A stretch of 6,707 nucleotides of DNA from a virus. Taxonomy: Duplodnaviria; Heunggongvirae; Uroviricota; Caudoviricetes. The stretch is from the IMG/VR virus record IMGVR_UViG_2737471848_000011; one strand, given 5' to 3'. Below, in pieces: positions 444-6,707 of this stretch. The translations under genes and the position numbers were made by a program. The notes below the pieces were generated by a model. The model was not told the DNA's origin. It searched no databases and saw nothing but the letters and a program-made list of their open reading frames with translations. Positions within the stretch are counted from its first letter, which is position 1. Each line of letters starts with the position of its first letter.

Positions 444-671
444 TTCACCTGTTCACCTTTTGATATTTTATCTTTTAATTCATAATGTTAAGGGGTGAAC
501 AGTTTCACAAAAACTATTCACCAACTGTTCACCACTGTTCACCCTTGAAGCTCAATAAACAATCAAAAAGGTGAACAGTGAATAGTTTGGTGAACAGTTC
601 ATAAATAACTGTTCACCATATAATATACTGATATAAAAGATATTTATGACAGGGTGAACAGTGATGAACAG
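444..671. repeat. Iteron array, putative replication origin (ori/crr-like), with AT-rich stretch
   Basis: Perfect octamer TGTTCACC or its complement GGTGAACA at 450-457, 494-501, 526-533, 536-543, 570-577, 589-596, 610-617, 653-660; degenerate copies at 444-449, 515-522, 577-584, 663-670; both orientations. AT-rich block at about 621-650. Sits directly 3' of the alpha-like gene. The octamer is the one I recall as the P4 alpha-binding type I iteron. Confidence 0.8.
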
Positions 672-684
672 TTATTCCATAAGT

Positions 685-2738: not shown

Positions 2739-2768
2739 AGTTTTATTTTCCTGTCAGCAGTTCCGGTT

Positions 2769-2942
2769 TTATTTCCGCACGAATACAGAGTTCAGAAAAA
2801 ATTCAGGAGAACCAACAATCTCATTACTTTTCAGTCGGCATTGTGATTTCACTTTCCCTTTATCCAGGTAAACCAGTACGCGTCCGGTGAAATCATCTGG
2901 CACATTAAGCACTACGGGTACATGCGCTTCATGATTATGCAT
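2769..2942 (-). CDS. Putative small protein, 57 aa (MHNHEAHVPVVLNVPDDFTGRVLVYLDKGKVKSQCRLKSNEIVGSPEFFLNSVFVRK), not in the ORF track
   Basis: Hand-translated. ATG at 2942..2940 preceded by GGAGGA at about 8 nt; the start overlaps the TAA stop of the 197-aa gene with the same ATGCATAA junction seen at the 74-aa/197-aa boundary; stop TAA at 2771..2769. Fills an otherwise empty 196-bp gap in the operon. Confidence 0.45.
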   Translation of the reverse strand: MHNHEAHVPVVLNVPDDFTGRVLVYLDKGKVKSQCRLKSNEIVGSPEFFLNSVFVRK

Positions 2943-3528
2943 GGCTTACATCCTCCGTGAATTTTCTTCTGTAACGCGTCTCTGCCACATATTCCGCATA
3001 GTCCGACGCAATACTAAGAATCATTTCACCCTCTGACTTGTAGCCACTGGTATTGATAAGAAAATATGCAGCTTTCATCATGTCAGCAACGCTCAACAAT
3101 GCGCCCGCTGCATCTTCCGGTGCGCCATCAAATTCCCGTTTCAGGGAATTAAAACGATCATCACGCATGTTTACCCCCCCCTGAATGACCTGATAACCGC
3201 AACTGGTCAGCAATTCGATAAATTCCGGCAGTGTGCCGAAACAGCAATCATCACGCAGACGTTCGCGGGATACTTCAACGCCGTTTTCGTAGTGACTCAC
3301 CATGCGTCCGGTAAAATGCAGATCATCATCGTGATGGCACGTTGACGGCTTAATCAGTCGCGCACGTTCCGCCAGTTCCAGCAATGCTTCAACGCTTCCG
3401 GCAATTGCACCATCCGGCAGGTGATAATTACTTACCACGCGTCCATTCTCCACGTTGACCAGTAGCTGCCCGGAAAATATCTCGTCAAACTGAATGCTGT
3501 TAAGGTCAGAAATTGACAGGTTATGCAT
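2935..3528 (-). CDS. Hypothetical protein Z, 197 aa (unknown function; Cys/His-rich patches CHHDDD and DDCCFG)
   Basis: Start chosen at ATG 3528..3526 (MHNLSISDL...) because AGGAGG lies 6 nt upstream; the track ORF begins 6 codons earlier with no SD. The start overlaps the stop of the upstream 74-aa gene (ATGCATAA). Contains a G8 homopolymer at 3174-3181. Confidence 0.7.
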   Translation of the reverse strand: MHNLSISDLNSIQFDEIFSGQLLVNVENGRVVSNYHLPDGAIAGSVEALLELAERARLIKPSTCHHDDDLHFTGRMVSHYENGVEVSRERLRDDCCFGTLPEFIELLTSCGYQVIQGGVNMRDDRFNSLKREFDGAPEDAAGALLSVADMMKAAYFLINTSGYKSEGEMILSIASDYAEYVAETRYRRKFTEDVSHA

Positions 3529-3745
3529 GGTGCACCTCCTGCACATCAGCCATGATAATTTTTCCGGCCTTATCCAGTGCCTGATCGGCTTTTAGCTGCA
3601 CAAATGCTAAATAATGGAAGATGCATTCTGATTCTCTGGCTGCGTGTTTATGCGCCACACCAGCGATAGCAGAAATCTCAATAAGTGAATCCATCAGCGT
3701 TTTGATAGCGTCTACCGCTGCATCAGGCCATGTTGCATTACACAT
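3521..3745 (-). CDS. Hypothetical protein Y, 74 aa
   Basis: The track ORF starts at a GTG (3787); the internal ATG at 3745..3743 has GGGGGTGG upstream and overlaps the stop of gene X by 8 nt (ATGTGTAA), so I call the shorter form. Stop TAA at 3523..3521 overlaps the Z start. Confidence 0.5.
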   Translation of the reverse strand: MCNATWPDAAVDAIKTLMDSLIEISAIAGVAHKHAARESECIFHYLAFVQLKADQALDKAGKIIMADVQEVHHA

Positions 3746-3935
3746 GTTCCACCCCCTGACGAATACGGGCGGCGAATACAGCAACACAACCTGACGGGCA
3801 ACGGCTACGCGCTTCGCGTTCCGTCCAGGCGGTTACGTGGATGATTTGAGATTCTCCGGCACTCAGTGCCAGAAAACGCCACACAAAGGCCGTTTGTGTG
3901 TGTACAAGGTGTGGTATATGATTTACAGCAACCAT
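3738..3935 (-). CDS. Hypothetical protein X, 65 aa, first gene of the leftward operon
   Basis: ATG at 3935..3933 with AGGAG 5 nt upstream; the track ORF extends upstream to 4010 without an SD. Lies downstream of a predicted leftward sigma70 promoter. Confidence 0.5.
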   Translation of the reverse strand: MVAVNHIPHLVHTQTAFVWRFLALSAGESQIIHVTAWTEREARSRCPSGCVAVFAARIRQGVEHV

Positions 3936-4026: not shown

Positions 4027-4115
4027 GGTGTCAGCCACTATATTAGTAACAGGTGTCAGCCACGTCAATAGTGTTTTTCCGTTTTCTTGTGTGTATACTG
4101 TCAGCCACCTAATAA
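4027..4115. promoter_or_regulatory. Divergent promoter/operator region with three direct repeats of TGTCAGCCAC
   Basis: Repeats at 4029-4038, 4054-4063, 4099-4108 (the first two extend to GGTGTCAGCCAC). Leftward promoter on the minus strand: -35 TTGACG (4068..4063), 17-nt spacer, -10 TAATAT (4045..4040); repeat 2 fills the spacer and repeat 1 covers the predicted transcription start. Rightward candidates: -10 TATACT (4094-4099) or -35 TTGTGT (4087-4092) with -10 TAATAA (4110-4115), either overlapping repeat 3. Confidence 0.5.
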
Positions 4116-4129
4116 CGAGGAAATCAGAT

Positions 4130-4309
4130 ATGGCAACAAAAGCAGTTAATGCAAAATCCAAAAAGCTTGAGGCTCGAGTACCACACGCAATAGCTGATGC
4201 TGTAGAAAATTTAAAGGAAGATGGCGAAAGTACAGGGCAATTTATCGTTTCGGCACTTGAAGGCGAGATCAAACGCCGCCAGCGTCGCAAGGCCAAAGAG
4301 CAGGAATAG
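4130..4309 (+). CDS. Small ribbon-helix-helix-like DNA-binding protein (59 aa), putative repressor of the switch
   Basis: ATG at 4130 with GAGG about 9 nt upstream; the longer track ORF (from 3989) has no SD and overlaps the promoter region. MATKAVNAKSKKLEARVPHAIADAVENLKEDGESTGQFIVSALEGEIKRRQRRKAKEQE fits a beta-strand (KKLEARV), helix A, G-x-S/T turn, helix B pattern with a basic tail. It is the only plus-strand gene and is followed by an intrinsic terminator. Confidence 0.6.
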   Translation: MATKAVNAKSKKLEARVPHAIADAVENLKEDGESTGQFIVSALEGEIKRRQRRKAKEQE

Positions 4310-4397
4310 CCCACCAGCAAGCCAGCACACTGATCACATTGCCCACCAGCCAACAAATCGCTATGATGTTTGGGCTTATGTTTAGTGTTTTCCCATT

Positions 4398-4431
4398 GGC
4401 GACCTCTGATCCGGGTCGCCTTTGTTTTGTC
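4398..4431 (+). terminator. Rho-independent terminator of the RHH gene
   Basis: GGCGACC (4398-4404) / GGTCGCC (4414-4420) 7-bp GC-rich stem, 9-nt loop, followed by TTTGTTTTGTC. The reverse complement has no U-tract, so it is plus-strand specific. Confidence 0.6.
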
Positions 4432-5008
4432 ACTGAATGCGGTTGCCAAAGTAAAACTCAGGCTGATATTCACGTATCAGCCTTTTTTCTTCTTCCTCCA
4501 GCTCACGCTTTTTGCGCTTACATGCCTGTAGCTCCCTCCCCTTCTGACTAGCACTTAACTGATATTGCTCTTTACGGCGAGAAAAGTCCTGTAATGCGCC
4601 CCACGGGATACCATAAGCCCCCGTTTTTCTGATTCCTGGTATCACATTCCTGAATACCCAGTTACTGAAACGATGGGCGAATGTGCCTTGCGTCGTTGCT
4701 TTGCGGCTACGGGCTATTAGTTTGTAGAAACCTGACTCAGAGATAATGCTCATATTCTGATTTCCTCCTGGGGTGTAAGTTAAATTTACTCCCTTTTCAT
4801 CATCATCAAGCATCTGCAACGCCGTACGCGAATTGGTCAGTTCCAGCGCAGCGCAGACATCCTTTGCAACAAACCACGGATCGCCGTTCAGATACACCAC
4901 GCGAACGTTCACACTATCAAAGCGCAGAACGACCAGATCACGAAAATCACAGATTTTTTTTACATGACGTGCGTCACCCTTGCCCGTCACGGCAATATTT
5001 TTATTCAT
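4430..5008 (-). CDS. BRO-N domain protein (phage antirepressor-like), 192 aa
   Basis: Sequence DPWFVAKDVCAALELTNSRTALQMLDDDEKG...IISESGFYKLIARSRKATTQGTFAHRFSNWVFRNVIPGIRKTGAYG matches the conserved Bro-N pattern (PWFVAKDV, DEDEK, SGLY-LI-SRK, W-VLP-IRKTG-Y). C-terminal about 50 aa is charged and coiled-coil-like. ATG at 5008..5006 with GAGGT upstream; contains an A8 tract at codons 16-19. Confidence 0.8.
   Translation of the reverse strand: MNKNIAVTGKGDARHVKKICDFRDLVVLRFDSVNVRVVYLNGDPWFVAKDVCAALELTNSRTALQMLDDDEKGVNLTYTPGGNQNMSIISESGFYKLIARSRKATTQGTFAHRFSNWVFRNVIPGIRKTGAYGIPWGALQDFSRRKEQYQLSASQKGRELQACKRKKRELEEEEKRLIREYQPEFYFGNRIQ
4459..4490 (+). terminator. Second hairpin plus T6 tract (backup terminator) embedded in the 3' end of the BRO-N coding region
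   Basis: GGCTGATA (4461-4468) / TATCAGCC (4475-4482) perfect 8-bp stem, 6-nt loop, then TTTTTT (4483-4488). Confidence 0.4.
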
Positions 5009-5028
5009 TTCTTTTTTACCTCACATAC

Positions 5029-5053
5029 AAAAAACCCCGCATTGCACGCGGGG
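5029..5053 (-). terminator. Rho-independent terminator downstream of the alpA-like gene
   Basis: On the minus strand: CCCCGC, 7-nt loop, GCGGGG (plus 5035-5053) followed by TTTTTT (plus A-run 5029-5034). On the plus strand the stem is followed by tatgaaag, so it acts only on leftward transcripts. Confidence 0.6.
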
Positions 5054-5067
5054 TATGAAAGATATTA

Positions 5068-5292
5068 TTAGTGGGGATTGGCTTGTTCTCGTTGTTTATC
5101 TAACCATGCTTCTACATCTCTACGGTGCCAGGTATGTCGTCGTCCAATTCTGAACGGCTGAGGAAAACCATTATTCTCATCTTTCCAGAAATTGATGAAT
5201 GCACTCATTGCTCCATATCGCAAGATTTTCATTACGTCTTTAGTAAATAAAATATCTTCATTGGTATTCATTTGCTGAACCTCCTCAACCAT
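5068..5292 (-). CDS. alpA: AlpA/Vis-like small DNA-binding regulator (excisionase/activator family), 74 aa
   Basis: Small ORF immediately downstream of, and overlapping, the integrase (ATGGTTGA junction). Helix-turn-helix-like core ILFTKDVMKILRYGAMSAFINFWKDENNGFPQPFRIGRRHTWHRRDVEAWL resembles AlpA-family proteins paired with P4-type integrases. Confidence 0.75.
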   Translation of the reverse strand: MVEEVQQMNTNEDILFTKDVMKILRYGAMSAFINFWKDENNGFPQPFRIGRRHTWHRRDVEAWLDKQREQANPH

Positions 5293-6523
5293 TTACTACT
5301 CTTAAACCTTTCATACCACCGGATCTATTAATTACCCCTTTTCTCGCATCATCAAAAAAATCACCGACCCATTGCATCATGATCTTACGCTGTTCTAGAT
5401 AAATAGTTCTATTATAAATATCTCTTATTTTATCACCACTTTTATGCGCCAATGCAGCCTCGATTACATCGGGGTTAAATCCCTCCTCATTTAAAAGCGT
5501 ACTCCACATTGAACGAAAACCATGTAACGTTACAATCCCTTTGAACTTACTGGCAGCAATTGGGGTCTTGATAGTATTCCTCCCCATAGGCGCATCTTTT
5601 GTTCTGGAGGAAAAAAACACATAACGCCCTCTTTTTATTTCCTGCATTGTTCTGAGGATACTAATAGCCTGTGATGACAAGGGAACAACATGTTCACGAT
5701 GGCATTTCATTTTATGCGCGGGGATAATCCACAAGCCAGAATCAAAATCAATCTCTGACCACTCTGCTTTAATCGCCTCACCTGGCCTGACCATTGTCAA
5801 TATCTGGAATAAAAGTGCATTATGAGCTATTTGATAGGTATGAGGCACACTATCCCACCAGCTCAGAAATTCAGGCAATCTTTCAACAGGTAGTGCTGCT
5901 AATGATTTATTTTTCTTTCCTGTGAATGCAGTCTTTATCTTAAGTAATGGATTTGCTTTCAATGCTCCACAATTTACAGCATAATTCATAATTTCATTTA
6001 ATCTTGATATTAATTTTTTTTGCAACGCATTCTTATCGGATACGGCATCCAGAGCATTAATAGCTACTGGTGCTGTAATTTTTTCTATACTGTACTTACC
6101 AAAGAAAGGAACAAGATATTTGTATACTTCATATTCGATATTATACAGCGTAGGTTTCCGCAATTCAGATCCCTTTTTAAAAGCGAACCATGCATTAGCA
6201 ACAGCTTCAAATGTCTGTAGATTTTTTAGTGACATCTCAATTTTACGATTTTTCTTCTCCGTCACTGGATCAACTCCACGTGCAATCATTCGCCGAAGTT
6301 CATCACGTACTTCCCGTGCTTCCGCGAGTGAGAATTCAGGAAAACGTCCTATCGTGTATGTCTGCCGTTTCTTCGTTATCGGATGGCTATAACGGAAACG
6401 CCACACTTTCCCACCGGCTTTACTCACATTCAGCAATAAACCGAACCCATCATAAACGGCATAGTCCTTTTCACGTGGTTTCATCCCCTTAACTTCAGTC
6501 ACGGTTAATGGCTTTACCGACAT
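5285..6523 (-). CDS. int: Tyrosine recombinase, P4-family integrase, 412 aa
   Basis: N-terminus MSVKPLTVTEVKGMKPREKDYAVYDGFGLLLNVSKAGGKVWRFRY matches the P4-type integrase arm-binding domain; C-terminal catalytic signatures HGFRSMWSTLLNE (HxxR) and a tyrosine region DIYNRTIYLEQR. ATG at 6523..6521 with GAGGG upstream. Confidence 0.93.
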   Translation of the reverse strand: MSVKPLTVTEVKGMKPREKDYAVYDGFGLLLNVSKAGGKVWRFRYSHPITKKRQTYTIGRFPEFSLAEAREVRDELRRMIARGVDPVTEKKNRKIEMSLKNLQTFEAVANAWFAFKKGSELRKPTLYNIEYEVYKYLVPFFGKYSIEKITAPVAINALDAVSDKNALQKKLISRLNEIMNYAVNCGALKANPLLKIKTAFTGKKNKSLAALPVERLPEFLSWWDSVPHTYQIAHNALLFQILTMVRPGEAIKAEWSEIDFDSGLWIIPAHKMKCHREHVVPLSSQAISILRTMQEIKRGRYVFFSSRTKDAPMGRNTIKTPIAASKFKGIVTLHGFRSMWSTLLNEEGFNPDVIEAALAHKSGDKIRDIYNRTIYLEQRKIMMQWVGDFFDDARKGVINRSGGMKGLRVVNG

Positions 6524-6707
6524 CTATCGCCCTCATTTTTTAGTCCGTCATGTAGTCCATTCAAGCCAATAACAAGCGATAAACTAACTCATTATCAAGC
6601 AAAGAGAGGAAACTCATAAAATCACAACTCATTGAAAAGACTATGAAACGACACCAGAACATACAAACAGGTAAGAAATGTACCCTACATCCAAAATGAC
6701 GCAATCC

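Follow-up and report, generated by a model that had tools for sequence, protein, structure and literature searches.

[quoted passage not shown] The same portions already propose that late transcription of the helper continues into satellites embedded in it (PMC10111431). In EcCICFT073, expression of AlpA alone gives excision and replication (PMC6092414), and antitermination of the AlpA type has precedent in P. aeruginosa (PMC7969949, PMC9371919). Here, we describe bro, a Bro-N gene in a 6,707-nucleotide stretch of viral DNA (the window, by which this whole stretch is meant), and conclude that it is a genuine Bro-zone gene of a helper-embedded PICI, under selection yet dispensable. To our knowledge, AlpA is the sole Gram-negative PICI regulator tested so far, and helper sensing by such satellites is only partly understood.

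The satellite element and its helper prophage

The window represents a Gram-negative PICI satellite of E. coli that interrupts a prophage's lambda-type terminase gene (gpA), which makes it a helper-embedded PICI (Table 1). An earlier note, made from the letters of the window, had called it a satellite-type element, and the int, alpA, YlcI, Icd-like and P4-alpha-type primase genes found here bear this out in fitting a Gram-negative PICI. The gene order on the minus strand is int, alpA, bro, switch and primase, with bro, which opens the Bro zone, co-oriented with int-alpA and with the primase gene, and small ORFs and DUF4222 come after the Icd-like gene. For the AlpA-like protein, Pfam HTH_17 reaches 17.5 bits, below its cutoff, and a PDB sequence search gave only a non-significant match to lambda Xis, with no P. 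aeruginosa AlpA chain among the matches listed. An Rfam scan of the whole window returned no P4 CI/seqA-type, P1 C4 or IsrK RNA at E <= 1, and only two chance matches to miRNA models, in the ori repeats.

Table 1. Features of the window, listed from integrase to primase, with positions counted from its first letter
Feature	Position	Strand	Basis or remark
Tyrosine integrase	5285..6523	-	Pfam Arm-DNA-bind_3, Phage_int_M, Phage_integrase
alpA-like excisionase/regulator	5068..5292	-	PHROG 66, E 1.7e-7; annotated HTH regulator; PGAP start at 5271
Intrinsic terminator between alpA and bro (hairpin and T6)	5028..5054	-	Structure scan, folding
bro leader with GAGG ribosome-binding site (5022-5019)	5009..5027	-	Sequence; conserved from T-run to ATG
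bro CDS (192 aa, ATG start)	4430..5008	-	ORF, Pfam, PHROG, RefSeq WP_001038673.1
Bro-N domain, residues 34-124	4637..4909	-	Pfam PF02498
Hypervariable cassette-like patch, residues 56-92	4733..4843	-	Alignments, dN/dS, megablast breakpoint
C-terminal helical hairpin, residues 136-181 (conserved, highly charged; predicted)	4466..4603	-	AF2 helices, homologue alignment
ylcI transcript terminator, 10 nt away from the bro stop	4398..4420	+	Terminator scan
YlcI/YnfO-family 59-aa gene, convergent with bro	4130..4309	+	NCBIfam NF041551, E 1.1e-16; PHROG 949
Switch: three direct repeats TGTCAGCCAC at 4029, 4054 and 4099	4029..4108	+	Repeats, promoter-like site
Icd-like first gene of the replication operon	3738..3935	-	NCBIfam NF033153, E 5.8e-18; PHROG 1743/6196
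D5/P4-alpha-type primase-helicase	2499-685	-	50% identical to P4 alpha over residues 125-594

E. coli chromosomes carry identical copies of the element. The copy in strain 2014C-4423 is surrounded by the tail, head and lysis genes of a lambdoid prophage, whose terminase large subunit is split between GpA_ATPase and GpA_nuclease, the two halves flanking the element on the same strand. The element is oriented like the prophage late genes, no minus-strand terminator was found between the terminase fragment and alpA, and the helper prophage encodes a Q-type antiterminator (Phage_antitermQ, 35 bits). The late operon of the helper also carries a P22_AR_N+ORF11CD3 gene, and the satellite has a protease-capsid fusion gene of its own.

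The bro gene, its protein and its distribution

The ORF, Pfam, PHROG and RefSeq evidence agrees on a 192-aa Bro-N gene between alpA and the divergent switch, as had been read from the sequence alone, and the identical protein in RefSeq carries the annotation "BRO-N domain-containing protein". The Bro-N similarity proved not to be spurious, since the Pfam profile matches over positions 1-96 of its 96 with 72.2 bits (cutoff 25.6) and E 5.6e-20; PHROG 2593 covers residues 1-190 with E 4e-86. NCBIfam and PADLOC searches returned no family for Bro and no match to a defence-system profile, and a PDB sequence search with Bro gave no significant match. In an AF2 model built on 46 homologues (mean pLDDT 69.7), the Bro-N core spans residues 25-129 at pLDDT 80-90 and has a fold of the Bro-N/KilA-N/APSES type. 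Bro is thus modelled with the APSES/Dachshund-like Bro-N fold, which is of a DNA-binding type in characterised relatives, and DNA binding is predicted here.

The charged C-terminus pointed out in the earlier note corresponds to two predicted helices (residues 136-155 and 157-181, pLDDT about 70-77), with 16 of the 25 residues in 157-181 charged when counted on the translation. This predicted hairpin ranks among the best-conserved parts of Bro in 46 Enterobacterales homologues, in which A153, S154, G157, L160, Q161, L170, E173, E174, L177, Q182 and P183 are invariant, and it has no family match in Pfam, NCBIfam or PADLOC. A search of 1.8 billion cluster representatives found the Bro-N domain in 24,730 clusters, only about four of which cover the C-terminal tail, and the full Bro architecture is therefore that of a narrow enterobacterial family.

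Among 10 E. coli alleles, all with an intact reading frame, the mean dN/dS of bro is 0.19. The ratio is 0.19 for residues 1-55, 0.63 for residues 56-92 (dN 0.28), 0.07 for residues 93-135 and 0.10 from residue 136 to the end, hairpin included, and by these substitution rates bro is under purifying selection apart from the patch at residues 56-92. Three to four cassette-like sequence types of this patch occur among the aligned E. coli alleles, and megablast places a recombination breakpoint at window position 4841, which is codon 56 of bro. The patch type showed no covariation with the integration site, the switch operator repeats or the YlcI allele, and it did not track helper cI in the four helpers compared, a weak test at this number. 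The repressors of the two helpers with T2-patch elements are only 43% identical, and that of a helper with a T1 element is very dissimilar; a second T1 element encodes an identical Bro, and the prophage around it is a remnant without a repressor, its early region destroyed by IS elements.

Of 5,426 complete E. coli genomes, 182 have full-length bro, about 1,355 match the Icd/YlcI switch region and 84 carry the alpA type of the window element. The window's alpA type appears always to occur with bro, because adding alpA left the set of 298 genomes matched by bro no larger. Shiga-toxin-producing E. coli commonly carry such elements (O157, O145, O121, O111 and O103 strains are among the matches), so effects on prophage behaviour could matter in practice.

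Fifteen bro+ E. coli loci were inspected individually. All but one lie inside prophage packaging genes, namely a lambda-type terminase, a Terminase_1-type terminase or a lambda-family portal (14/15), and the single chromosomal off-target copy adjoins pgrR and is frameshifted. One embedded copy is frameshifted as well and one more is split by IS100, and with two of the 15 sampled copies frameshifted and one split by an IS element we consider bro dispensable. Bro is 95-96% identical across elements with ~24% identical integrases, and the AlpA-like proteins of the three integration modules (lambda-type terminase, Terminase_1-type and portal) are at most 30% identical or do not match. Because Bro is near-identical on unrelated integration modules, the unit formed by terminator, RBS and bro must have moved by recombination.

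The chromosomal relatives L058 and L059 are without bro. Homology to L059 stops at window position 4428, just past the ylcI terminator and two bases short of the bro stop codon, so the terminator-RBS-bro unit (4430-5067) behaves as a clean insertion or deletion. The slot between alpA and ylcI is empty in L059 and holds small plus-strand ORFs in L058, and EcCICFT073 retains a 105-bp bro fragment within an unannotated chimeric ORF. Embedded satellites at the capsid E site and at the ClpP-protease site (one of each inspected) have no bro, with different opposite-strand genes of no known function in the slot; the capsid E junction sequence is present in 175 genomes. On account of these two satellites, bro was rejected as a general mark of the helper-embedded lifestyle, for which it is not required, and the link between bro and embedding is one-directional.

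Outside E. coli, 12 orthologue loci were compared, from Providencia, Erwinia, Leclercia, Yersinia, Serratia, Raoultella, Klebsiella and Proteus. In these genera, the gene order is AlpA, (orf131), Bro, an Ash-family protein with an Icd-like segment, and primase. A terminator upstream of bro is absent in all 12, bro lies -4 to 19 nt from the preceding ORF in nine, and a tRNA gene stands just upstream of the integrase in seven.

Expression of bro and the role of its product

The earlier note had described a terminator upstream of bro and no obvious promoter in the 60 bp between that terminator and the start codon. The intrinsic terminator is real and strong, with a stem at 5054-5034 (minus strand) of nine pairs, six of them G-C, followed by TTTTTTG (dG -19.6 kcal/mol, z -2.6). 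The promoterless character of the region also stood, in that a simple consensus scan of the minus strand from 5008 to 5300 (bro to mid-alpA), of a kind that could miss a non-canonical or activator-dependent promoter, found no sigma-70-like site, but the distance did not: 59 nt is the whole gap from the alpA stop to the bro start, and the T-run stops roughly 20 nt short of the ATG, with GAGG 10 nt upstream of the ATG. No LexA box was found near bro. Each of the 10 bro+ E. coli loci that were aligned has a G+C-rich hairpin, a T5-6 run and an RBS leader ahead of bro. Three distinct stems occur among their terminators, so that the structure of the terminator, not its sequence, is conserved. The leader from T-run to ATG is conserved across elements with unrelated alpA genes, and the sequence further upstream differs completely. 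Dependence of bro on read-through, which had been raised as a question, is probable because hairpin, T-run and RBS are kept in 10/10 loci with three stems.

Our best reading, which we hold tentatively and at a little less than an even chance, is that Bro regulates the induction phase in an accessory capacity and is produced only if the transcription that gets past alpA is very strong or resists the terminator. While the satellite is embedded, the likely source would be the Q-antiterminated late transcript of the helper, entering from the interrupted terminase gene; after excision, it would likely be AlpA-driven transcription. By analogy with lambda biology, helper late transcription would reach int and alpA anyway, and bro efficiently only if it were terminator-resistant. 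Antitermination by AlpA is speculative here, because the AlpA-like protein has no detectable similarity to solved AlpA chains and its HTH_17 match is sub-threshold. So expressed, Bro would be neither a lysogeny gene nor a trigger of helper induction. Most likely, Bro would act by binding DNA in oligomeric form or by using the hairpin to contact a partner. The variable patch would determine its specificity, and late in the cycle Bro would tune transcription of the satellite or the helper.

This could be taken further, with the terminator-RBS-bro unit acting as a cis-acting sensor of the late phase: ordinary transcription would stop after int-alpA and only Q-modified polymerase would reach bro, so that Bro would signal true helper late growth and retune late transcription of helper or satellite with allele-specific targets, and recombination would have carried the unit between satellites that disrupt packaging genes (portal and two terminase families) in spite of their unrelated integrases. 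We regard this extended form as quite improbable.

Bro might instead act on the satellite's own switch, a role that the earlier note had also allowed, by antagonising the YlcI/YnfO-type protein or binding the TGTCAGCCAC repeats and so opening the Icd-primase operon once alpA is on. Such a role would suit the position of bro between alpA and the switch, convergent with ylcI, the membership of Bro orthologues of other genera in an early operon leading to the primase, and the three operator-like repeats, which overlap a leftward promoter-like site (4068-4040) and whose observed count was reached in 0/200 shuffles. These repeats, however, do not differ between bro+ and bro- elements or between patch types, the same YlcI protein occurs in the bro-less L058 and L059 and with different Bro patch types, and EcCICFT073, with its bro remnant only, excises and replicates on AlpA alone (PMC6092414); action on the switch thus found no support, and we think it unlikely. 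The terminator, for its part, may merely end the int-alpA operon, with bro expressed from an unrecognised promoter independently of read-through. The consensus scan is crude and weak -10-like hexamers occur in the A/T-rich end of alpA, but with so short a distance from T-run to ATG any upstream start would transcribe the hairpin, and it is the leader that is conserved while the sequence before it changes with the alpA type; a promoter of its own is very unlikely.

A true antirepressor would inactivate the repressor of the helper, or of another resident prophage, as P4 epsilon does with P2 C or P22 Ant with c2, and the satellite would thereby force helper induction. Homologues of Bro are named "anti-repressor" in PHROG and GenBank, Bro-network relatives such as P22 Ant are genuinely antirepressors, and the hypervariable patch is a possible sign of tracking diverse repressors. 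The names, however, are transferred annotation, with no tested close homologue found, and Pfam finds Bro-N alone in Bro, with no ANT/KilAC, P22_AR, AntA or Ash domain. An Ash (epsilon-family) gene stands beside the Bro orthologues, and the patch type is independent of helper cI in the four cases above, one of them repressorless. The helper repressors retrieved are also LexA/S24-type, and repressors of this type in lambda-like phages are inactivated through SOS-induced self-cleavage. A terminator and no promoter would place bro expression after activation, not before, and no LexA box, C4/isrK control or Arc/Mnt-type immI control was detected. The P4-epsilon-like antirepressor suggested in the earlier note found no support in this evidence, and we judge it distinctly unlikely. 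We are still more reserved about bro as accessory interference or exclusion cargo that represses a helper or competitor gene, as PLE CapR does, and has no part in the satellite's regulatory cascade. The varying contents of the alpA-to-ylcI slot (in L059, L058 and the capsid- and protease-site elements), the travel of bro as a unit between unrelated integration modules and the satellite's own protease-capsid fusion gene would fit cargo. Cargo for defence usually has a promoter of its own and is active in the lysogen, whereas bro lies behind a terminator without one; PADLOC has no match, and in other genera bro is an in-operon gene of conserved position, which leaves cargo a highly doubtful explanation.

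For the favoured reading of Bro as an accessory induction-phase regulator, bro is a compact test case, with one conserved unit on unrelated modules, a clear specificity patch and a predicted dependence on helper antitermination. If that dependence is true, the cis-regulatory coupling that has been proposed for helper-embedded satellites would gain a concrete mechanism; if false, bro would be an ordinary, dispensable accessory gene of the Bro family.

Comparison with known systems

P4 epsilon/Ash resembles Bro as a small satellite protein from an early operon, downstream of an AlpA/Vis-like gene, but it has no sequence or Pfam relationship to Bro, which lacks a Phage_ASH domain. Bro is not the equivalent of P4 epsilon, because a separate Ash (epsilon-family) gene directly follows the Bro orthologues; bro takes the eta/kil position of P4, not the epsilon position. 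No Bro homologue was found in the P4 genome by tblastn, and in contrast to P4 eta/kil-CI RNA immunity the Rfam scan found no CI/seqA-type RNA in or near bro. P22 Ant and P1 Ant (P22_AR_N/P22_AR_C, ANT/KilAC) are, like Bro, phage regulators of the loosely knit, domain-shuffled "Bro network" but fall into different Pfam families, and Bro has no similarity to the P22_AR_N protein of the helper. SPC32H Ant was considered as an experimentally proven relative and rejected, being an unrelated 86-aa protein.

Baculovirus BRO, the N-terminal domain of CpGV Orf22, fungal APSES (Mbp1) and the Dachshund/Ski DHD share only 8-17% sequence identity with Bro and have no counterpart of its C-terminal hairpin. 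The Vibrio PLE protein CapR, which is encoded by a satellite, binds DNA and tunes late (capsid) expression of the helper. CapR may be a functional analogue of Bro, but is related to T5orf172/GIY-YIG homing endonucleases, not to Bro-N. Literature searches turned up no functional work on Bro-N proteins of satellites.

The closest match is the Bro zone itself, which agrees with the bro of the window in position, orientation and Bro-N Pfam membership, as far as the accessible portions of its description go (PMC10111431). The segment MNKNIAVTGKGDARHVKK... (Bro residues 1-33) is near-identical to b1.56-b1.63 in the Bro segment file of that study, and two of the loci compared here, L064 and L060, are Eco33.15.A_Terminase_1_246 and Eco4623.11.B_Phage_portal_2_241 in its catalogue, each as far as these are accessible (PMC10111431). 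Because of this match, the kind and position of bro can be taken as already described. The accessible portions mention no function for the Bro zone, no terminator-RBS-bro unit and no variable patch, and a lambda gpA-type terminase was not found as a satellite target in the accessible part of the supplement (PMC10111431). Relative to these portions, three points may be new: the terminator-RBS-bro unit common to unrelated integration modules, the variable patch, and the lambda gpA-type terminase as an integration site.

Integration site and other genes of satellite and helper

The satellite interrupts a terminase large subunit gene of the lambda gpA type, with the break falling between the ATPase and nuclease domains. 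The available part of the supplement to PMC10111431, the paper describing helper-embedded PICIs, gives Terminase_1, portal, ClpP, U35 and capsid E as target sites and has no occurrence of "GpA", and the lambda gpA-type terminase may be a target site not yet catalogued. The satellite has, outside the window, a ClpP-protease/major-capsid fusion gene of its own; a helper gene with the same RefSeq product type lies a few kb off. The fusion gene may have a role in capsid redirection, or may be a captured late gene. A P22_AR_N+ORF11CD3 gene, a member of the Bro network, sits in the late operon of the helper, with the lysis genes on one side and Nu1 on the other. No similarity between its protein and the satellite Bro was detectable. 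The 203-aa ORF is intact in the window and annotated as two ORFs in strain 2014C-4423 because of a one-base difference, and the small ORF beside it is frameshifted by annotation in several genomes.

Coordinates of features in the window and in related loci (L001, E. coli 2014C-4423; L002, E. coli CFT073; L076, E. coli RM10410; L079 and L080, embedded satellites without bro)
Feature	Window	Related locus	Spacing
Split terminase / satellite junction	6689-6707 and beyond	L001 7151-8281 and 18689-19693	
Satellite protease/capsid fusion gene		L001 9186-11075	
Helper gene of same product type		L001 3471-5450	
P22_AR_N+ORF11CD3 gene		L001 21202-21771	
203-aa ORF (PHROG 2512/340)	2935-3546	L001 14935-15529	
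Small ORF beside it	about 2743-2942		
Iteron array	447-677		
Direct repeat TGTCAGCCAC, three exact copies	4029-4108		25 and 45 nt
Leftward promoter-like site	4068-4040		
Direct repeat ATAGCCCACCAGC / ATTGCCCACCAGC	4306-4350		32 nt
Chimeric ORF		L002 9001-9250 (- strand)	
Frameshifted bro		L076 2699-3276	
178-aa gene		L079 6921-7457	
236-aa gene		L080 6906-7616	

Repeats at the switch and downstream of the primase gene

The TGTCAGCCAC repeats lie upstream of ylcI, overlap the leftward promoter-like site, and look like operators. They are kept in elements with the same YlcI type, with and without bro alike. Another direct repeat sits directly past the ylcI stop codon, and its second copy, ATTGCCCACCAG, is found also in L059, a bro-less chromosomal relative. 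A 9-10 nt iteron (CTGTTCACC/GGTGAACAG) occurs at least 10 times, in one orientation or the other, within an A+T-rich stretch directly downstream of the primase gene, presumably the satellite replication origin. Two Rfam miRNA matches that came from this stretch were rejected as spurious.

The alpA-to-switch slot and bro remnants in other elements

Two other embedded satellites have an oppositely oriented gene and no bro in the slot between alpA and the switch, encoding 178 aa in L079 (capsid E gene site) and 236 aa in L080 (ClpP protease gene site). L080 has a HicB antitoxin gene in place of ylcI, and its host element is a PICI in its own right. Decay of bro is seen in E. coli RM10410. In an off-target chromosomal copy of the window's satellite type there, which adjoins pgrR and has the same integrase, bro is frameshifted and the ylcI region is duplicated. 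Downstream of alpA in the model PICI EcCICFT073, an unannotated chimeric ORF has a b1-like N-terminus fused with a 105-bp Bro-N fragment that shares 81% identity with Bro residues 57-98; a G+C-rich hairpin follows. Remnants of this EcCICFT073 type explain most of the ~116 genomes without a full-length bro match.
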